64,000 nucleotides of DNA. Source: a phage. The DNA is taken from assembly GCA_024686575.1 (NCBI GenBank), contig GCA_024686575.1_4863.1; one strand, 5' to 3'. The translations under genes were made by a program, and so were the position numbers. Under the pieces are notes generated by a model, which searched no databases, was not told where the DNA came from, and saw only the letters and a program-made list of their open reading frames with translations. Positions 31,059 to 63,945 of this stretch are shown piece by piece; positions within the stretch are counted from its first letter, which is position 1, and the number at the start of each line of letters is the position of its first letter.

Positions 31059-32843
31059 ATGGAAATCAATACCTATTACGCACCCGAGGATGTCATCGCT
31101 AAAGAGTGCAAGCACGTCGCTTATGCGACGGACGAAGAAAAAGAAAATGACTTTGTCCTCATCAAAGAGGTCATCCATACTAAGGATGGCAGGCTTATCC
31201 CGCGCTTGGTAATGCGTGAGAATTTAAAGCGTCCGGTGTACGTTACCCGTGAAGAATATCGTAACCACCAGGAGAAAAAGGAGTTCGAAGAAAAAGGAAA
31301 ATGTCAAGAACTCTGGACTACTGATGCGCAGATGGCGAAGACGTTGCAGATGGGTTTAGGTGCACGTTTCCCTGACCCGAAAAAGAACCTGAGGCGTGTT
31401 TGTACTAGCCCGTACGTTTATTGGGCCGACTTACCGATTACCAGCTGGATTAAACAGAAATACTTAAAGCGTTGGCCAAACAACATCAGTCCTAACCGTC
31501 TTTGTGTATACGACGTAGAGACCAACGAAATGGACGGCACGAAGGAACCGTGGATCGTGTCATTTATCTTAGACGACGAAATCCATTTCTTTGGTGCTAA
31601 GAACTACATGGACCGCATCGGTAAAAACGCGGAAGAAGTCATTCTCAAAAAAGCGCAGGAACTCTTAAGCAAAATCGAATTCGATGAGAAAGACAAAAAG
31701 ACTGGCGAAAAGGTGACAAAGACCAAAGACATTATCAGTGGTTATAAAATCTTCACCTATACCTGCGCTACAGCAGGGCAGTGCATCGTCAGGATGTTCG
31801 AAGAAATTCATCCGCGTCTTCCTGATTTGCTGGTCGCATGGAACCACCAGTTCGATATTTCACGCATGTTAGAAACCTTGCAGAAAGAAGGCATCGATCC
31901 ACTGGGCGTCTTTAACCATCCGGATGTGCCGGAGAAATACCGTCGTCTGTGGTTTAAAGAAGACCAGGCGAACAAAAAGACAGAATCCAAGTCACTCACC
32001 AAAGCACCGTCACAACAGTGGCACGTACTCTACTGTACTGCGTCTTTCTACTGTGTGGATGCCATGGTGTTATTCCGTTCGTTGCGTGTCCACGAAGGCC
32101 AACGTCCTTCGTACAAGTTATCTGCCATACTGTACACCGAACTCGGTTTACACAAACTCGACATTCCTGGCCTGCCGTATGAAGATAACCTGCAATGGCA
32201 CATAAAAGCACAACGGGACTACCCTGCCGAATACGCCGTATACAACATGATGGATAACTTGTTAATTGTGTTGTTGGATAAGAAGACGAACGACTTGTCT
32301 TCAGCAATATCCATTCTGGCAGGTTTCTCGATGTACGATATCTTCCCGTCGCTACCAAAACGTATCTGTGTGGCCTTTACCTATTATCTGTATGACAAAG
32401 GATACGTCATCGGCTCCGTAGGATCTGCAATGCGTAACGATTACGATGAAGAGGTTATCGGTACAGACGGTTGGATTGTTACCCTGACAGCATGTATGAA
32501 TGCTGAGAACGGTCTGAATAACATTCTGGAGGAGATTGACGAATATTACTCTGCGTTCCGTGGTCAAACTGCGGATGCGGACTTAACCCAGGCCTACCCT
32601 TCGGCCACAAACATGATGAACCAGTCTCGTGAGACCACACTCATTGAACTGCTGTCCATCAATGGGGTTAGTGAAGAGATTCGACGTCGCACGGGCGTCA
32701 ACTTAACTGCTGGGCGAGTTAATGCCATGGAAATAGCGACAGACTTCTTCTGCTTACCGGACAAAGACACTGTCCTGTCTACGTTCTTACGTAAGCAAGG
32801 GGAAGTAGTGACAGAGCCTATGGAGTACATCTGCGGGTTCTAA
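31059..32843 (+). CDS. DNA polymerase (family B-like), N-terminal part with 3'-5' exonuclease domain
   Basis: 594 aa; DEDDy exonuclease motifs in canonical order: Exo I LCVYDVETNE, Exo II VAWNHQFDISRML, Exo III YAVYNMMDNL; a possible motif A-like SMYDIFPSLP near the C-terminus; terminator downstream. Confidence 0.6.
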   Translation: MEINTYYAPEDVIAKECKHVAYATDEEKENDFVLIKEVIHTKDGRLIPRLVMRENLKRPVYVTREEYRNHQEKKEFEEKGKCQELWTTDAQMAKTLQMGLGARFPDPKKNLRRVCTSPYVYWADLPITSWIKQKYLKRWPNNISPNRLCVYDVETNEMDGTKEPWIVSFILDDEIHFFGAKNYMDRIGKNAEEVILKKAQELLSKIEFDEKDKKTGEKVTKTKDIISGYKIFTYTCATAGQCIVRMFEEIHPRLPDLLVAWNHQFDISRMLETLQKEGIDPLGVFNHPDVPEKYRRLWFKEDQANKKTESKSLTKAPSQQWHVLYCTASFYCVDAMVLFRSLRVHEGQRPSYKLSAILYTELGLHKLDIPGLPYEDNLQWHIKAQRDYPAEYAVYNMMDNLLIVLLDKKTNDLSSAISILAGFSMYDIFPSLPKRICVAFTYYLYDKGYVIGSVGSAMRNDYDEEVIGTDGWIVTLTACMNAENGLNNILEEIDEYYSAFRGQTADADLTQAYPSATNMMNQSRETTLIELLSINGVSEEIRRRTGVNLTAGRVNAMEIATDFFCLPDKDTVLSTFLRKQGEVVTEPMEYICGF

Positions 32844-38686: not shown

Positions 38687-39022
38687 TTAACTTGCATCGT
38701 GTGGAACAGTCACCCAATCGTGCCATTTTTCAGAGTAAAGACGATAAGCCATCTTTGGATTCTGATCGACACTACCGGCCGGGTTCTCATTCCACAACAC
38801 GTACGTATATAACTCGTACGACGAAGTGTTACGGATACTTGACGTGCGGGTGACGTAGTACGTCAACCCGCGTTGGTTAAGGAACAGGCCGCTGTAATGT
38901 TCAGTGACCATGTAGTAGTGAAACGCCTGGTTGATAGTGGCGTCGGTACAGAGTTTCTTAGCGACGTCTTCTACGCCGGGATACGCCTTTAGAATGTTTT
39001 CGAGAAAACTTGCTAAAGTCAT
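38687..39022 (-). CDS. hypothetical protein
   Basis: Track ORF 38687..39070 overlaps the 3' end of the helicase gene; internal ATG (MTLASFLENIL...) reduces the overlap. Start and reality uncertain. Confidence 0.35.
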   Translation of the reverse strand: MTLASFLENILKAYPGVEDVAKKLCTDATINQAFHYYMVTEHYSGLFLNQRGLTYYVTRTSSIRNTSSYELYTYVLWNENPAGSVDQNPKMAYRLYSEKWHDWVTVPHDAS

Positions 39023-41702
39023 TCCGATGTAGGGTGGCAGCGGCTCTGCTGGACGCGGCGGAGTGAGCATGTGATTTCCTTACAACGTAGGGGGATGTCG
39101 CAATACGGAACGACAATACGACATCCTTGAGTGATTTCTGACGGGCATTCAGGTAATTGCAATGCTTCGGTACGTTATACGCATGGAATAACCACACCGT
39201 TGGGTCTATTTCACCCCATTCGTTGTGGAGAATCTTACGTGGACGACCGGCCATCTGTTCGTTCAGTTGCTGGTCTTCTACCGGGGTTGAGATGTACATG
39301 TGTACCAACCCAGGTTTATCGACCGCAGTCCCCGCTTTCCCCGGTGTGGAGATAGAGAAGTCTGCTTGGATAAAGTCGTCATACGAATCGCCTGCATTAT
39401 ATTTCGCCACCATCAGTGGATGGAATACAGGGTCACGCGATAACTTATCTTTCACATACTCGGTAAAGAACTCACACATCGCTACCGTAGCAAAGAGTAT
39501 CAAACATTTTTGGCCAGGCTGATACCGTTTAAGAAACGATTTCTCAACCACATCCCAGATCATGTTTGCGTATTCTAAATGCAAGTTCTCTTTAATCAGC
39601 TTCCCTTCGAAGAGCTTGTGGTTATACGGCGTCATCTTCGACGCCCACCACGCAAACTTCTTATCATCCAGTCGATAGTACAACGCCTTCACGTCAACCA
39701 CCGGAATGATTGGAATACTGATTCGGTACTCCATTGGGAAACGTTCTAAATACCGCTCCGCGATAAAGGCTTTACTGCTACCCGGCTTAAGAGTTGCAGA
39801 CATCTCTATCGATGCCGGCGGATTCAACATTATACCAGCCATGTAAACGAGGTGAAAATGCTCGTGCACCTCATCCATCGCCACCAGACCCACACCCAGA
39901 ACATCATAAAACGTATCCAGGTCCACAGGGTTAGTCGCAGCAGTGTTAATGTACTCCTTCAGGAAACGCTGTAGAGAGACCGTGGGGAGGATTATTACCT
40001 TAATACCACGACTATCTAGCTCTCCCGACTTACCCATCTCCAGTGCGTCGTAAATCGCCTGTACGCCTGTACAAACTAACACCTCGTCACGAAGTATACG
40101 AAGTCCTGTTTCATCATCACAGACGTCAAACAGCCATTTGGGAACGTACGACGGACGGTGAATCAATGCGGTACGGGTTCCCCGTTTAACCATCGACTTC
40201 ATACAGGTCTTGGTGTTGTGCGTAACAATCCACTGTCCCAGAACGTACAGATGTTCATCGTTGTCGACAGTAATGCACGAACCATGACTCTTCCCAACAT
40301 ACACGATAGACTTAACACGGAGTTTCAGTGTATCGTTGTATTGACCGTTGTCGCGACACAGCGCTTTCTTACGCGGGAGGTTGAACAGCATTGAAGGTGT
40401 CTTGTGCCTAATGAACACCATATAAGCCAATTTACCTTCTCTACGTTCTCCTTTGTAAGTAAAGAACGGACGTTTTGTGGATATAGTTGCAATACCACCT
40501 AACGATCTCACCAACTCCTGGACGCCCAACGCCAGCGACTCGCTGGTGCTACAATACGACGGCTGCCCTCCATCTTTATTCACGGTTCCGTCCGTGTCCA
40601 TTAAACCGCGCAGCAGCTCCCAGCGTTGCTCAATCGAGCCTTCAAAATATTCATCCGGAATATATTTTCTATCAGACCCTTTCCCTAGAAGACCGTGGTC
40701 CTGCAAATAGAGCGGCCAGGACATCGGCACTTCACGTCTGCGACGACGCATTCTATACTGATAACGATCGGCGGGAACCATCTCGGTATCGTCAGGTAAA
40801 TACTTCCTCACCAGCTCGACAGTTTCTGGATCGGCTGATGTGAAGCCTACCGCGCCATTTTCACAGGCGTGGCCGTTTCCCAAGAATGCCCCCATGAGAT
40901 ACGGATGTATTTTAAAGCACTTTTCACTTGTCTCTTCCGGTTCAGGTAACGGAATGTAGACTCGCGGGTTCGGCATTGCAATCAGTCGCTGAATTTCTTC
41001 CGTACTTCTTACCTGCCACCGAGTGTTTGGTGTGGTATTGACGTAGTAGGATTGCCAGAGATGCTCTTTACCGACCACAGTCTTACGTCCGTCAGCAAAA
41101 GTTATCTCGTAAAAATCCCAATCTTCATGCGGGTACACCGCCGTCACATTCGTCGGCTTCCCATCCCTACCGATTACCACATCCCCGACTTCTAGCTCTC
41201 CATGTAATTTCCACCCACCAGGAATCCTTACACGCTGATCCCATCTACAGACCTTTCCTCTTCCTGTTTGTATCGCGAAAACCGTTTGTGAACGCGATGG
41301 ATCTGTTGCGGCGGCTACGACTTCATTCTGATAATAGAAACGCGACTCTGGGTCTGTTTCTTCCATCTTGAATCCGTAATTATCAAACGTGCACTTATAA
41401 GGTTCTGCACGTTCAGGATGGTGCTCTGTTAGCTTGTACTGAAAAGCGTATTCAATTGCTGCTCGTTGGAGGATATGTTTAATCTTCTCAGCGAACACTT
41501 TATGGAAAATGAACGTCCTTAAAGACGGAATGTGAGCGTAGTACGCGTCACCGCGTTCCGTAGTTATTCGTCCATGTTGCTTGCCCATCTTTGGGGCGTG
41601 CATATTCTCTTCGGCCCACGCGAGTATGGCCCTTTCAGCCTGGCGGATAGGGACTTCAACCCGTACCCCCATACTCGTGTAAGTCATTTGAATTTCTACC
41701 AT
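38958..41702 (-). CDS. SF2 DExH-box helicase interrupted by an intein
   Basis: Extein motifs: P-loop-like QTGRGKV | TKT split by the intein, motif II LVAMDEVHEHF, motif III MSATLKPG, motif VI QMAGRPRKI. Likely start is M20 (MVEIQ..., ATG 41700-41702) because a terminator hairpin for the upstream gene lies at 41727-41745. Confidence 0.75.
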   Translation of the reverse strand: MVEIQMTYTSMGVRVEVPIRQAERAILAWAEENMHAPKMGKQHGRITTERGDAYYAHIPSLRTFIFHKVFAEKIKHILQRAAIEYAFQYKLTEHHPERAEPYKCTFDNYGFKMEETDPESRFYYQNEVVAAATDPSRSQTVFAIQTGRGKVCRWDQRVRIPGGWKLHGELEVGDVVIGRDGKPTNVTAVYPHEDWDFYEITFADGRKTVVGKEHLWQSYYVNTTPNTRWQVRSTEEIQRLIAMPNPRVYIPLPEPEETSEKCFKIHPYLMGAFLGNGHACENGAVGFTSADPETVELVRKYLPDDTEMVPADRYQYRMRRRRREVPMSWPLYLQDHGLLGKGSDRKYIPDEYFEGSIEQRWELLRGLMDTDGTVNKDGGQPSYCSTSESLALGVQELVRSLGGIATISTKRPFFTYKGERREGKLAYMVFIRHKTPSMLFNLPRKKALCRDNGQYNDTLKLRVKSIVYVGKSHGSCITVDNDEHLYVLGQWIVTHNTKTCMKSMVKRGTRTALIHRPSYVPKWLFDVCDDETGLRILRDEVLVCTGVQAIYDALEMGKSGELDSRGIKVIILPTVSLQRFLKEYINTAATNPVDLDTFYDVLGVGLVAMDEVHEHFHLVYMAGIMLNPPASIEMSATLKPGSSKAFIAERYLERFPMEYRISIPIIPVVDVKALYYRLDDKKFAWWASKMTPYNHKLFEGKLIKENLHLEYANMIWDVVEKSFLKRYQPGQKCLILFATVAMCEFFTEYVKDKLSRDPVFHPLMVAKYNAGDSYDDFIQADFSISTPGKAGTAVDKPGLVHMYISTPVEDQQLNEQMAGRPRKILHNEWGEIDPTVWLFHAYNVPKHCNYLNARQKSLKDVVLSFRIATSPYVVRKSHAHSAASSRAAATLHRNDFSKFSRKHSKGVSRRRRRR
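40215..41249 (-). mobile_element. intein (Hint domain) with a two-motif LAGLIDADG homing endonuclease
   Basis: 345 aa (residues 171-515 of the track ORF). N-terminal block CRWDQRVRIP...GELEVGDVVIGRDG and TxxH-like block; LAGLIDADG-like motifs PYLMGAFLGNGHA and LLRGLMDTDGTV; C-terminal blocks CITVDNDEHLYVL and GQWIVTHN followed by +1 Thr. Boundary codons checked on the nucleotide sequence. Confidence 0.8.
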
Positions 41703-41716
41703 GCTGCCCCTCTTCG

Positions 41717-41745
41717 CACAAAAAAAGAGGGGCGCAAGGCCCCTC
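41717..41745 (-). terminator. rho-independent terminator
   Basis: Hairpin GAGGGGC-GCAAG-GCCCCTC with a minus-strand T-run, directly after the beta'-like gene stop (41749). Confidence 0.65.
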
Positions 41746-41748
41746 GGT

Positions 41749-43854
41749 TTACAACTCAATTACCACAGCGGCTCCTAGGTCATCGTACAACGATGCCGGG
41801 ATTTTGTACTCGGTATAAAAACCAACGCGATCGATATTCCCCTGCTGTCCTTCAAACAACAACATCGGAATTGCCGAGCGCAAACTAATGAGCGTGTTGT
41901 GATCGACAAACCGTTTCCCTGTAGCGTTAGTAGAATCCTCACTGTCAAATCCTACTGCCGGGAACGGATTGGTTGGCGACTCTACACGAGATATCGCCAA
42001 CATAATCGCAATGTGCGTCATCGGTATACCACTCAGCTTACGCTGGATATACTTAAACGTGTCCATCAACGCATAAGTACACTGTTTCTCTGTAGCACCA
42101 CCCATTTCAACCAACGTCACCGGTTTCACACGACCTTGTTTCTTGTTCAGCTTCACAGTCGAGGCTGTGTTGATGATTTCCACAATGTCTTCGTTCTTAT
42201 CGGCAGCAATCGAACGGAGCTTGGTTTCTAAGCCGGCTACGAACTCCGCCATCGATTCAGAACGGTTGGTGTAGACCAGGACCGGGTGTTTCGGGTTCCA
42301 TCCTTTTAAGGGGATTTCTACCGTCTTCTTCTCGATACGAATGTTCGCTCGTTGTTTCAAGAAGTAGTGCAGGAACGGTTTAGAGAAGTTCCCACAAACA
42401 CCCATTCGCACATCGATAGAATCCGCAGCGATTATCTGCCCATCTTCTAAACGACGTTGGAAAGTTAAGTCGGTGATTTCTGGTAATGCCGTTTCATCAA
42501 TTGCATCGAGATCTTCATGATACGCAATCTGGCTCAGCTCCGAATAAACTTTGTCGGTAACAACCAACTCGTATTCTGACCAATTCCCACGCTGTGGTTT
42601 TGGCAGCAAGCACAACCCTTTCAGAGAGTTATGTTTGTATTCGGTCATATACTCACGCATACGTGGGGTGAGTACCAGGTTGAGCAGATAACGCAAGAAG
42701 TCAAGGTGCTTGGTAGAGAGAATTCCCTGTGTACCCTTTTCCGAGATGGACGTGGATGCCAGGTGACCTGGTGACGTACCTTCAGAGAGGTTATAAATCA
42801 AATCCCCCATACAGGTCGCACAGATGGACTGATTCGCCATCTCTTTACAGGTCATGGCACTACGGAAGACCAGCGGTTTGCCAACCAGGTCTGCGTATCC
42901 GCCTTTCTCAAATCGCAACCACGGACCATTATCGCCTTCTAAACGATAACGCATCCCCACCATCGCTTTATAGGCACGCTCATCCAGCTGCGTATCCTTA
43001 AACGTGTAGCGGTGTGCGTGTGTTGTACCGCAGTCGTCGTACGTGAAATACATCAGTACGTTTGCTGCCAGCTGCAGTTTACGTGAGGCGTATTCTGCTT
43101 CGGCAATCTTGTCAGTGTTGTACAGGTGGGAACGTGAAGTTGCACCAGATTCTTTCAAACGCGAAATAACCGAATGCATTCCGGTAAAGAAGCCTTCCCA
43201 CACCTGATTGGTGTATACACGTGAGTCAATTTCTGACGTTTTGCCGCGCACGAACGCTTGCAGTACCTGGTTCATCTTCACGGTACCGTCCAGTACCGAC
43301 ATTACGACTGGGTTATACCGCAGCGCAGGGTCTTTGAAGATTTTCTCGATAAGCTTATACGCTTCTTCAACCATATCCTGACCATCTTCATCGTAGCCAG
43401 TAGGATACTGCACTTCCCACTGACGGATGAGTTCGAAGTTCGGGTGGTCGTAGATCTCCATCATCGTATCAAAGTCGATTGTCGTACAATAGGACAGCAA
43501 GTTCTTCACTGTCATGTTGAACGCATCGGCGTAGACATGTTGACTCAGGATATAACGCGTTTCAGCAAGGTCGACACCTGCTTTACGGGCCAGTACCGCT
43601 GCTTCCGACATAAAGTCCAGATGCAGGTCATCTGTTGCTACCTGACCTGGACGATACGCCATGGTCGATGGAGTGGGCACCTGCGGATACAGACGCGACA
43701 CACCCCAATACGGCCAGCTGAGTTTGATGTGGCGACTAGACATTTCCAACGACTTACCATCGTCGAAAGTCACGTAATAACGCCCGCGTAGTTTCCACAC
43801 CTGATCAGAGTTAAGCATACGCAAATCACGTACGTGTACAGAACGACCCGCCAT
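41749..43854 (-). CDS. multisubunit RNA polymerase beta'-like subunit, C-terminal part
   Basis: 701 aa; STSISEKGTQGILSTKH resembles the beta' trigger loop (SIGEPGTQLTMRTFH); ATG overlaps the TAA of the upstream beta-like gene (TAATG). Confidence 0.6.
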   Translation of the reverse strand: MAGRSVHVRDLRMLNSDQVWKLRGRYYVTFDDGKSLEMSSRHIKLSWPYWGVSRLYPQVPTPSTMAYRPGQVATDDLHLDFMSEAAVLARKAGVDLAETRYILSQHVYADAFNMTVKNLLSYCTTIDFDTMMEIYDHPNFELIRQWEVQYPTGYDEDGQDMVEEAYKLIEKIFKDPALRYNPVVMSVLDGTVKMNQVLQAFVRGKTSEIDSRVYTNQVWEGFFTGMHSVISRLKESGATSRSHLYNTDKIAEAEYASRKLQLAANVLMYFTYDDCGTTHAHRYTFKDTQLDERAYKAMVGMRYRLEGDNGPWLRFEKGGYADLVGKPLVFRSAMTCKEMANQSICATCMGDLIYNLSEGTSPGHLASTSISEKGTQGILSTKHLDFLRYLLNLVLTPRMREYMTEYKHNSLKGLCLLPKPQRGNWSEYELVVTDKVYSELSQIAYHEDLDAIDETALPEITDLTFQRRLEDGQIIAADSIDVRMGVCGNFSKPFLHYFLKQRANIRIEKKTVEIPLKGWNPKHPVLVYTNRSESMAEFVAGLETKLRSIAADKNEDIVEIINTASTVKLNKKQGRVKPVTLVEMGGATEKQCTYALMDTFKYIQRKLSGIPMTHIAIMLAISRVESPTNPFPAVGFDSEDSTNATGKRFVDHNTLISLRSAIPMLLFEGQQGNIDRVGFYTEYKIPASLYDDLGAAVVIEL

Positions 43855-55130: not shown

Positions 55131-55556
55131 TTAGCTCCTGTCAAATTCAAGGACGGAAATGTAATATTTGCCTGGTCGATAGTCCGCATACTTAACGGTG
55201 TCGACTTGATGGTAAACTTTTACACCCCGAAATGTTAACCAATGATATTTGATACTCAGCTTACGGCTAGCGACGAACTCCTCGTCTAACCGCCAGGCTT
55301 GTTCAGGAGGCACATCTAATCCAACGAGCAGATCCTTCTCATCTATCTCGAGATACGCACCATAATCACCAACCACCACACGGTTCCAACGTAGGCATAC
55401 AGATACACCGCCTATTGTGGCAGCCCTTACCTTATCGAACCCGTTTAAGTGTTGCTGATAAACTGACAAAGCTTCTTCACGCACTTTCTTGGGCAATGGT
55501 CGGTATCGATACCGTGCTGCCAAGCCCTCGATATACGCCAATATAGGATGCTGCAT
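55131..55556 (-). CDS. hypothetical protein
   Basis: 141-aa ORF; terminator upstream of its start region. Confidence 0.45.
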   Translation of the reverse strand: MQHPILAYIEGLAARYRYRPLPKKVREEALSVYQQHLNGFDKVRAATIGGVSVCLRWNRVVVGDYGAYLEIDEKDLLVGLDVPPEQAWRLDEEFVASRKLSIKYHWLTFRGVKVYHQVDTVKYADYRPGKYYISVLEFDRS

Positions 55557-61665: not shown

Positions 61666-63945
61666 TTACTCCTCCGCTTCTTCCCCATCTTCTTCCTCTC
61701 CATCACGTTCAGATTTCTTAACGTACTCACCACTACCTAATTCTTCCTTGACGGAATCTACAGACTCACCGTAGTAATCCGAAAGCAGACGAGTTCTGTT
61801 CTTGTCCATCATGAACACACCCAGACATTCCAGAATGTGATAGTAAGGTTCTACTGTGGAGAATGCGCTTCGACGTGTGTCTGCAGCATCAATCAGCTCC
61901 GGCGGAATGCCGAAGTTTTCCACCAGGAACTCTGGCAGTATCAGAGTGCGATAGGTACGATAGTTGTTTTCTTCGAACCACCGTGTTGCGGTGGTCTTAA
62001 TCATCGGGTCTTTAATGTTTTCCAGCCACTCTTTAACGGCTGTTTTGTTCTCCAGGTTTACCGGAAGTTTCACGGCGTCATAAGGCGGTTCGTCCAGGTA
62101 GCCGTACTTCGGTCCAAAGATAGCGTTGTACATGCGGTGGTAATGGTAACTCTTTTCATCATCTTCAGAGTACGCACTACGGTCTTTGACGTTGGTTGTT
62201 TTCAGGTAGCCTGCTTTACCAGCGCGAATAGAATCCACCACAACGTGCTCAATTGCAGCAACCTTTTCCAGCAGAGGCAGAATCTTAATCTTGTCACCTC
62301 GTGCCACGATCTCACAGAGTTCTTTAATCGTGCGTTTGAACTCTTTCATGACCACCGGAGGAATGTTCGACGTACGTAAAGACACGCCCTTAACTTCTAA
62401 CTCAGGGTCAGACTTCAACTGCCCTTCCTGGCCAGTGATGATGGAGAAATAGTGTTTTGCTTTCGTGGTTAACGCAAAGGAGTCGAACTTAAATTCGTTC
62501 TTCATTGCGTACAAAAACAGACGCTCTTTCGCCACACCGATATTCGCCGACATACTCGCCATCAGATGACGTAAGTGCTGGGTTGCGATATAAATCATCG
62601 CATCCGATACGCGCGTAGCTTCACGACCGTAATGTTGACCGGTATACCACTGCGCCCACCACTGTGCAGTCATCATCGTGGAGTCGGTATCAGATACCAC
62701 GCCAACACGACGAACCACGTCAGGCATCCTGGCAATGTTGATTGGCAGGTTTTTGGTGGTCAGGATATTACGAATCAAGCACGCGTACTTACCGATGGTT
62801 TTCTGCAGATACACAGCTGAGCGAATCAGCTCTTTGTATTTTTCCTGCTTATCCCACGGTTCCGCTTTGTTCGTGTTTTCGTCTTTGAGTTTAACGTCAG
62901 AGAACGACTTACCTAACGGCACGATATCAGTACGGAACTGCGAGATAATGATCTGCATGTCACCGTCGATAGAGCGCTCAGCAGCATCCCAATCGGTGAT
63001 CTCGTCTTCCGTCTCCTCGGCAATCAGCGCACCGATAAATCCGCGCATGAATTCATCGTTATATTTCGCCAGGTGGTAGAAGTCACCCATGTAGACAAAC
63101 GCTGCACGTACCAGCGGGCTACAATTACCGACGTAGTGACGAATGAACTCTAGCCCTTCGTCGTTACGGAAGTAAAACTCTGCAGAATACATAACCACTT
63201 CCATAACCTCGTCCACTGTTGGGTAGTGGAGGTTATAGAGTTCCATACACTTCTTGAACTCAGCAAAGTTAGTCAGTGTACCGATAGAGAGTAGGTGGTC
63301 GATGACACGAGACGGCGTGTCGTAGTGACGATTACCGCCCAGTAGTCGTTCGTTGCCCGCATTACCGAATGATGTAGCTGTACGGCAGGTTGACGTCAAT
63401 ACAGAGTGCGAAGACTGGTTAAAGATTACCGTGTACGGTGATGAGAATGCACCCGACATCCCGTTGTTCAACGTCTTAACAGCGTTCTGTTCGTTCTTTT
63501 TGTTAATACGTAAAACTTCGTTTCCTGCAGCACCGGCTGCATACATCTCTTTCTTAACCACCGCACGCTTACGCACGTTCTCTGCCGTAAATTCAGCAAG
63601 CTTAGAACGCTTTACGTGTTCCGGCAAATAGAAGGTCAACGACGGTGCAGAAATGATCTGCTTATCAATCACTGTACGGAACAGTTTATCTACCGTGGTG
63701 TATTTTTCTTCGCGATCGCCGGTCTTTTGATTGCGCACCCACATCTTACACACGGGGAATTCGTGTACTAACTCACCACCAGGTTGGAACATTTCTTCGA
63801 CCTGCTGTCGACAGAACTCCAAAGAATATTTCCCGTTGGTGACGGTATGAATGTAGAGCGCCAGTTGTTCGTAGTACGCATCGATAACGTCAATGTCGCG
63901 ATGATACTCGTCTTGACTAAGACGAAATGGTGAATTGTAGTCCAC
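61666..63945 (-). CDS. DNA polymerase (family B-like), C-terminal polymerase part (putative)
   Basis: 759 aa; KTLNNGMSGAF (motif B-like K-x3-N-x3-G-x-F) and GVVSDTDST (motif C DTDS); GTG start with AAGGGG RBS. Motif-level evidence only. Confidence 0.45.
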   Translation of the reverse strand: MDYNSPFRLSQDEYHRDIDVIDAYYEQLALYIHTVTNGKYSLEFCRQQVEEMFQPGGELVHEFPVCKMWVRNQKTGDREEKYTTVDKLFRTVIDKQIISAPSLTFYLPEHVKRSKLAEFTAENVRKRAVVKKEMYAAGAAGNEVLRINKKNEQNAVKTLNNGMSGAFSSPYTVIFNQSSHSVLTSTCRTATSFGNAGNERLLGGNRHYDTPSRVIDHLLSIGTLTNFAEFKKCMELYNLHYPTVDEVMEVVMYSAEFYFRNDEGLEFIRHYVGNCSPLVRAAFVYMGDFYHLAKYNDEFMRGFIGALIAEETEDEITDWDAAERSIDGDMQIIISQFRTDIVPLGKSFSDVKLKDENTNKAEPWDKQEKYKELIRSAVYLQKTIGKYACLIRNILTTKNLPINIARMPDVVRRVGVVSDTDSTMMTAQWWAQWYTGQHYGREATRVSDAMIYIATQHLRHLMASMSANIGVAKERLFLYAMKNEFKFDSFALTTKAKHYFSIITGQEGQLKSDPELEVKGVSLRTSNIPPVVMKEFKRTIKELCEIVARGDKIKILPLLEKVAAIEHVVVDSIRAGKAGYLKTTNVKDRSAYSEDDEKSYHYHRMYNAIFGPKYGYLDEPPYDAVKLPVNLENKTAVKEWLENIKDPMIKTTATRWFEENNYRTYRTLILPEFLVENFGIPPELIDAADTRRSAFSTVEPYYHILECLGVFMMDKNRTRLLSDYYGESVDSVKEELGSGEYVKKSERDGEEEDGEEAEE

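Follow-up and report, generated by a model that had tools for sequence, protein, structure and literature searches.

The two open reading frames (ORFs) at positions 31059..32843 (+) and 61666..63945 (-) of the window, the whole 64,000-nucleotide stretch of phage DNA analyzed here (contig GCA_024686575.1_4863.1), are the two halves of one family B DNA polymerase (PolB). Such a split is not a new observation, having already been published as a hallmark of the phiKZ-like, nucleus-forming jumbo phages. It is highly probable that they are obligatory subunits of a single replicative PolB, with a palm split between the chains and a composite active site. The initial annotation had proposed one PolB made as two polypeptides, the first with the exonuclease and motif A and the second with motifs B and C, and profile searches, fold searches, and equal record counts of the two chains across phages agree with this proposal. 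All that this analysis adds is the assignment of motif A to the N-terminal chain (N chain), and the 2026 structure of the PhiKZ enzyme very likely shows the same. The two genes are as follows.

31059..32843 (+): N-terminal polymerase chain (DNAP-N type), spanning the PolB N-terminal domain, the 3'-5' exonuclease, and the opening stretch of the palm, which bears motif A (phrog_3011, hhalign, AF2/Foldseek)
61666..63945 (-): C-terminal polymerase chain (DNAP-C type; C chain), with the remaining palm, fingers, helical insert, and thumb (PF20286, phrog_2927, AF2)

The ORFs encode 594 and 759 aa, respectively, and both were recovered where they had originally been annotated, about 29 kb apart on opposite strands, with a gap of 28,822 bp between them. 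All of the peptide strings quoted for them (YDVET, NHQFD, YNMMD, DIFPSL, KTLNNGMSGA, and DTDS) were found at the checked codons. The intervening genes encode RNA polymerase subunits, a DnaB-like helicase, SbcD, and virion proteins; the helicase gene in the window carries an intein that is missing from the SPN3US reference. The whole window shared ~99% nucleotide identity with Salmonella jumbo phage SPN3US, a 240-kb phiKZ-related phage of the genus Seoulvirus. At the gene level, the N-chain DNA was 99.1-99.2% identical to that of Salmonella phages SaP7, SEGD1, JN03, and SPN3US, and the C-chain DNA was 99.3% identical to that of SPN3US. The SPN3US orthologs are YP_009153338 (N chain) and YP_009153312 (C chain), both labeled "DNA polymerase" in RefSeq.

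The divergent PolB of phiKZ-like phages was described by Kazlauskas and Venclovas (2011), with the exonuclease and the polymerase on separate polypeptides (PMC3201878). In their SPN3US study, Thomas et al. (2016) use the term "split subunit DNA polymerase" for phiKZ and credit Cornelissen et al. 2012 (PMC5105663). Iyer et al. (2021) gave YP_009153312.1, the SPN3US C-chain ortholog, as an example of the group 1 jumbo-phage polymerase and recorded both its long helical insert and the separate encoding of its exonuclease (PMC7824862). According to Basu et al. (bioRxiv, 1 Oct 2026; PMC13648687), PhiKZ DNAP-N and DNAP-C assemble into a stable 1:1 complex with a B-family fold, as seen by cryo-EM at 2.1 Å, and primer extension is boosted by a third subunit, Rhc, composed of an RNase H and a clamp-like domain. 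Pfam and/or PHROGs scans of 16 distinct ORFs identified no RNase H/Rhc gene; this search was confined to the window, beyond which the genome continues for another ~176 kb.

Comparison with the split polymerases of phiKZ-related phages, which had been suggested as a check, identified an orthologous pair and a shared two-gene layout. The PhiKZ orthologs found by tblastn were 33.9% (N chain, PHIKZ082 region) and 34.2% (C chain) identical to the window proteins over ~95-97% of the length of each, at positions 78008-79888 and 40599-42815 of PhiKZ, respectively. In both phages, the two genes lie tens of kb apart and the PF20286 family is represented, and only sequence divergence and host (Salmonella, Seoulvirus) set the pair in the window phage apart from that of PhiKZ.

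The N chain matched phrog_3011, "DNA polymerase," with E=4e-251, and a Pfam search of this chain returned zero matches. When its profile, built from 41 homologs with identity down to 21%, was compared with that of T4-like gp43, hhalign returned a single continuous block with 98.95% probability (E=9e-18), pairing N-chain residues 129-543 with gp43 residues 91-445, so that the alignment passes through the exonuclease domain and enters the palm. HMMER comparison with RB69 gave three collinear blocks, motif A among them. The Exo I, II, and III motifs called in the initial annotation were genuine, being invariant or nearly so in the 41 homologs and aligned with those of RB69/T4-like gp43.

31509..31523 (+): Exo I, YDVET (D152, E154), in invariant columns of the 41 homologs and aligned with gp43 FDIEV (D114/E116)
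31842..31856 (+): Exo II, NHQFD (D266), with D266 invariant and N262 almost so, aligned with gp43 N217..F221-D222
32241..32255 (+): Exo III, YNMMD (Y395, D399), invariant and aligned with gp43 Y323/D327

In the AF2 model of the N chain, residues 1-460 had mostly pLDDT values of 90 or above. Foldseek comparison of this model with PDB entries identified RB69 gp43 (E=2e-12, ~480 columns, TMq 0.43-0.49), and the model resembles the N-terminal half of full-length PolBs, including RB69 as well as Pol epsilon and archaeal PolB. All of the top Foldseek matches were full-length PolBs, with no stand-alone exonucleases among them. A stand-alone DnaQ-type exonuclease was therefore disfavored as the identity of this ORF, given structural matches of this kind and a gp43 alignment (91-445) that reaches the palm.

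The N chain runs for ~195 residues past Exo III, and this region holds the following elements.

32337..32354 (+): DIFPSL, counterpart of the gp43 "SPxKTWD" element that follows Exo III (gp43 357-366 aligned)
32454..32729 (+): palm fragment of the N chain (aa 466-557), conserved in sequence and unfolded in the monomer AF2 model
32574..32639 (+): true motif A and its flank, DADLTQAYPSATNMMNQSRETT, with invariant residues and aligned to gp43 FDLTSLYPSIIRQVNISPET

DIFPSL had been proposed as motif A. This call was wrong: D427 occurs only in close relatives, S431 and P433 are the conserved positions, and the stretch aligns with "SPxKTWD." The true motif A lies 75 residues onward, and because it is in the same ORF, the conclusion on the split PolB is unaffected by the error; the other five of the six motif calls were genuine, well above chance. 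The core of motif A, DADLTQAYPS, corresponds to aa 506-515 (window positions 32574-32603), and hhalign pairs N-chain ADLTQAYPSATNMMNQSRETT with gp43 FDLTSLYPSIIRQVNISPETI. In this alignment, D508 matches RB69 D411, a metal ligand, and Y513 matches Y416, the steric gate. Five residues of the segment (D506, D508, Y513, P514, and N521) were invariant in 41/41 N-chain sequences. Taken alone, the motif-A block scores weakly, with 5 bits in HMMER vs RB69 and 49% probability when the C-terminal fragment of the N chain is compared in isolation, but this fragment does recover gp43 404-429 (E=1.7e-4).

The C chain matched the Pfam family PF20286, "Divergent Family B DNA polymerase" (divDNApol), over profile positions 3-705 of 705 with E=2.9e-284 and a score of 945.1 bits, relative to a curated gathering cut-off of 25.7. 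This is a polymerase palm/thumb profile, as had been anticipated for this ORF. The chain also matched phrog_2927, and residues 94-189 matched PF00136 below the cut-off (E=0.0014). Conservation was assessed in an alignment of 41 homologs with identity down to 34%, in which motif B (KTLNNGMSGA) and motif C (DTDS), both annotated on this ORF from the outset, had invariant residues. Its features, in the order of the protein, are listed below.

63610..63660 (-): beta-hairpin that follows motif A, QIISAPSLTFYLPEHVK, leading into finger helix 1; aligned with Pol zeta 1019-1060 and formed of short strands in AF2
63448..63477 (-): motif B, KTLNNGMSGA, with invariant columns, on the second finger helix; aligned with Pol zeta KLLANVTYG and with gp43
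62731..63333 (-): family-specific helical insert of ~200 aa between the fingers/palm and motif C; all-helical with high pLDDT in AF2
62677..62697 (-): motif C, VSDTDST (D419, D421), with S418-T423 invariant; aligned with gp43 YGDTDS (D621-T-D623-S), with phage EL D396/D398 mapping here
62446..62460 (-): KKRY-type motif, AKHYF (K497, H498, Y499), invariant and aligned with RB69 KKRY 705-708
61669..61800 (-): C-terminal motif NRTRLLSDYYG and a disordered acidic tail, with S722/D723 invariant and tail pLDDT <35

Residues 85-165 of the C chain align with yeast Pol zeta 1019-1098, covering the hairpin and finger helices that come after motif A and continuing into motif B. Within motif B, K157, N161, and G165 match RB69 K560, N564, and G568, and the invariant positions are K157, N160, N161, S164, and G165, with the RB69 residue Y567 replaced by the invariant S164. 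The insert (residues 205-405) holds an invariant aspartate, D288, as well as N226, the counterpart of EL D229, and showed no detectable similarity to gp43 (E=0.41). The C-terminal motif is the same as "TRLISDFY," which Kazlauskas and Venclovas listed as a possible clamp-binding variant (PMC3201878). The AF2 model of the C chain (pLDDT 84.6) contains the finger helices (115-139 and 143-166), the helical insert, and the thumb. The best Foldseek matches in the PDB were RB69/T4 gp43 (E=3e-5, probability 1.00, TM ~0.23, identity ~10%), and no close structure was found among PDB entries in an April 2026 copy. At the profile level, the comparison with gp43 reached 18.9% probability, and alignments to canonical PolB were weak outside the motifs.

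Exo I, II, III, and A thus occur in this order on the N chain, and the C chain continues the series with motif B, the insert, motif C, the KKRY-type motif, and the thumb. Because of this motif order across the two chains, the break would lie inside the palm, past the motif-A strand and helix and ahead of the hairpin and fingers. Under the preferred reading, the N chain would supply the PolB N-terminal domain, an intact proofreading exonuclease, and the palm strand-helix with D508 and Y513. The C chain would begin right past motif A and would contribute the palm hairpin, the fingers with motif B, the insert, D419/D421, the KKRY-type motif, and the thumb. The active site of the window phage enzyme is predicted, from motif order and monomer models, to be composite, combining one metal-binding aspartate from the N chain with the DTD pair from the C chain, and neither chain would polymerize by itself. 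The interface probably involves the conserved segments that have no gp43 counterpart, namely N chain ~530-594 and C chain 1-95.

The monomer models are in line with this arrangement. Three stretches of the N chain (466-485, 498-533, and 546-557) were modeled by AF2 with pLDDT <50 and devoid of secondary structure, and we infer that the N-chain palm fragment may fold against the C chain. In the C-chain monomer, the DTDS region was modeled without its hairpin and the confidence dipped there. A motif-A segment that is disordered and a DTDS hairpin that is unformed in the separate monomers fit a palm sheet that would be complete only when the two chains come together.

An N-chain location for motif A contradicts the residue assignment of 2011, in which Kazlauskas and Venclovas put both catalytic aspartates on the EL polymerase chain, as D229 and D398 (PMC3201878). 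When these residues were mapped onto the window proteins, D398 corresponded to the second Asp of DTD (D421 here) and D229 to N226. The EL D229 position was rejected as motif A, being the non-conserved N226 at a helix junction within the insert. D288 was also considered and rejected, as it lies within the helical insert, C-terminal to motif B and off any beta-strand. Upstream of motif B, the C chain had no invariant acidic residue in the 41 homologs.

These positions bear on an alternative in which the first ORF would be a stand-alone proofreading exonuclease loosely bound to a self-sufficient polymerase chain. Such an enzyme is what the published model implies by placing EL D229 and D398 together on the polymerase chain (PMC3201878); Iyer et al. 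(2021) term the exonuclease "a standalone protein" (PMC7824862), and the invariant D288 upstream of motif C could be read in the same way. However, D229 corresponds to a residue that is not conserved, D288 sits in the insert and off a beta-strand, and the N-terminus of the C chain aligns with the Pol zeta segment that comes after motif A. Moreover, the N chain keeps the invariant pattern DxDxxxxYP...N.S..TT, aligned with gp43 motif A, and the N chain of phage EL itself (gp051) has it as DIDVEGAYP...N...TT. A pure exonuclease would have no reason to keep a motif-A block, which counts against this alternative, and we regard it as improbable. The preferred reading, in which the two chains are subunits that share one split palm, can be stated in its most specific form as a joint proposition, namely that the break lies in the palm and not at the exonuclease/polymerase boundary, that motif A (D508, Y513) comes from the N chain, and that EL D229 is not a conserved catalytic residue; in this combined form, it is put forward tentatively, as a possibility open to doubt.

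Could the two products instead be joined into a single PolB by trans-splicing of a split intein, as in Nanoarchaeum PolB or the jumbo-phage polymerases that bear inteins? Genomes of this kind often harbor inteins and homing endonucleases, with one in the helicase gene of the window, and the PolB of phage MIJ3 is reported to be intein-split. Nevertheless, neither chain had a Hint/intein Pfam match at E<=1, with PF20286 and PF00136 the only families matched by the C chain. The N chain ends with "...PMEYICGF" and the C chain starts with "MDYNSPF...," without intein-like blocks at either point, and the PhiKZ enzyme is described as a 1:1 complex of two subunits (PMC13648687). Trans-splicing is accordingly considered very improbable, and two separate chains in one enzyme remain the preferred reading.

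Using tblastn, we identified each chain in 291 phage records, with genus counts that were identical between the chains (Pseudomonas 81, Erwinia 62, Salmonella 24, Vibrio 23, Serratia 21, Aeromonas 20, and others). Where both positions were listed (SPN3US, phiKZ, PS119XW, Noxifer, EL, RSL2, RP12, Aeromonas D3, and PS2), the genes were ~30-48 kb apart. No fused homolog was present among 94 N-chain clusters (all 430-640 aa), among 120 listed C-chain clusters (<=807 aa), or in the best 150 of 751 strong representatives from a profile search (E<1e-30). The lone long protein, P0335 (894 aa), was examined as a candidate and is not a fusion; the extra sequence bears no relation to the C chain and matches no Pfam family. 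The split appears to be ancestral to the lineage, and the separation of the two genes is probably ancestral as well.

That a recent rearrangement broke an intact polymerase gene into dead fragments might be suggested by the heavy rearrangement of phiKZ-like genomes, but both chains are full-length, strongly constrained, and present together here and in related genomes. The 291 records of each chain extend over hosts from Pseudomonas to Vibrio and Bacillus, the distant ones with 26-34% identity, and no other replicative polymerase is annotated in the examined part of SPN3US. The probability of such breakage is negligible, and the two genes are best read as encoding working halves of one polymerase.

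Natural splits of PolB are known from several other systems, and they differ in where the chain is broken. The gp43A/gp43B pairs of T4-related phages (25, 44RR, 31, 65, 133, and Ac42) are alike in forming a two-chain PolB with a composite site, to which gp43A brings motif A and gp43B motifs B and C. As relayed in PMC2988022 and PMC3061061, these chains co-purify and are active (Petrov et al. 2006, 2010). The gp43A clusters, at ~502 aa, correspond to the first 56% of gp43. In the T4-type enzymes, the break is at the fingertip, within the fingers, and the cistrons are neighbors separated by 2 bp to 3 kb, whereas in the window phage the break comes before the first finger helix and both finger helices (115-139, 143-166) are on the C chain. 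Further, the window phage polymerase has extra conserved segments on both sides of the break, 29 kb separate its two oppositely oriented genes, and its split is fixed across a whole viral lineage.

Methanothermobacter thermautotrophicus PolB is likewise split naturally within the palm, and 85 kb separate its two genes (Kelman et al. 1999, cited in PMC3061061). It differs in being an archaeal cellular enzyme and in having its break ~83 residues C-terminal to the fingertip, after the fingers. Another phage PolB resembles that of the window in having an exonuclease-bearing chain apart from the polymerase chain; in that case a clean boundary between the exonuclease/N-terminal domain and the palm has been described, whereas in the window phage motif A is on the exonuclease chain. 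Phage RM378 is also among the natural cases of a split PolB. The YerA41 polymerase was dropped as a comparator, being a PolA-type enzyme.

The split polymerase is a core, lineage-defining trait of nucleus-forming jumbo phages, and it forms part of an unusual replisome with no recognized primase or classical clamp and with a clamp-derived Rhc subunit. For annotation, both genes belong to one enzyme, and neither is a complete "DNA polymerase" or a mere "exonuclease." A palm-internal split, if true and not already described in the 2026 report on the PhiKZ structure, would call for corrected annotation throughout the family. A composite catalytic center, if true, would also account for the co-occurrence of both genes and the absence of a fused form. 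Placing motif A on the N chain predicts an obligatory heterodimer, for which D508 and Y513 would be the mutational targets, and SPN3US has an amber-mutant genetic system.

The C chain carries a family-specific helical insert of approximately 200 amino acids (residues 205-405), for which no counterpart was detectable in gp43, the PolB of T4/RB69 phages. An invariant aspartate, D288, sits within this insert in the following segment:

63070-63099, (-) strand: FVYMGDFYHL, residues 283-292 of the C chain, holding D288

Ordinary full-length T4-like gp43 clusters (P0257 and P0311) had a precomputed hit to PF20286, the divergent family B DNA polymerase family, besides those to PF00136 and PF03104. These hits hint modestly, and independently of the other evidence, that T4-type polymerases are the nearest relatives of the divergent family.

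Among the homologs of the N chain, the match in phiKZ-type Pseudomonas phages was recovered as two tblastn pieces (hit H48 in phiKZ, AF399011 78008-79888, and relatives), suggesting that the gene contains an insertion, an intron, or a region of divergent sequence. Only 1 of the top 150 representatives was markedly long, a metagenomic homolog (P0335) of 894 amino acids with a C-terminal extension of approximately 330 amino acids, and this extension matched no Pfam family and did not resemble the C chain. Several Salmonella phage SPFM records (P0039-P0053, P0186, and P0212) harbored versions of both chains, 523-679 amino acids in length, that scored high against the HMM, yet their BLASTP alignments covered only 3-11% of the query. 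These low-coverage versions probably stem from frameshifted or error-containing assemblies and not from biology.

Differences between the window and the SPN3US reference include the following:

40215-41249, (-) strand: in-frame insert of 345 amino acids in the DnaB-like helicase gene (helicase residues 171-515)
55153-55543: 391-nt stretch missing at the matching position of SPN3US

The helicase insert accounts for the difference in length of the protein encoded by ORF 38958-41759 (-), which has 933 amino acids in the window and 568 in SPN3US. It begins with Cys (..TGRGKV/CRWDQ), ends with ..IVTHN followed by Thr, and includes a LAGLIDADG domain (PF14528, E=1e-9), and it resembles a homing-endonuclease intein, sited at the helicase P-loop. 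Examination of all frames of the 391-nt stretch revealed no long ORF.

Finally, the C chain ends in a strongly conserved motif, in which S722 and D723 are invariant:

61669-61800, (-) strand: NRTRLLSDYYG motif, then a disordered acidic tail (..ERDGEEEDGEEAEE), at the end of the C chain

This motif has been proposed to be a clamp-binding variant (Kazlauskas & Venclovas), and it could serve as a contact for Rhc, the third subunit of the PhiKZ polymerase, or for another partner.
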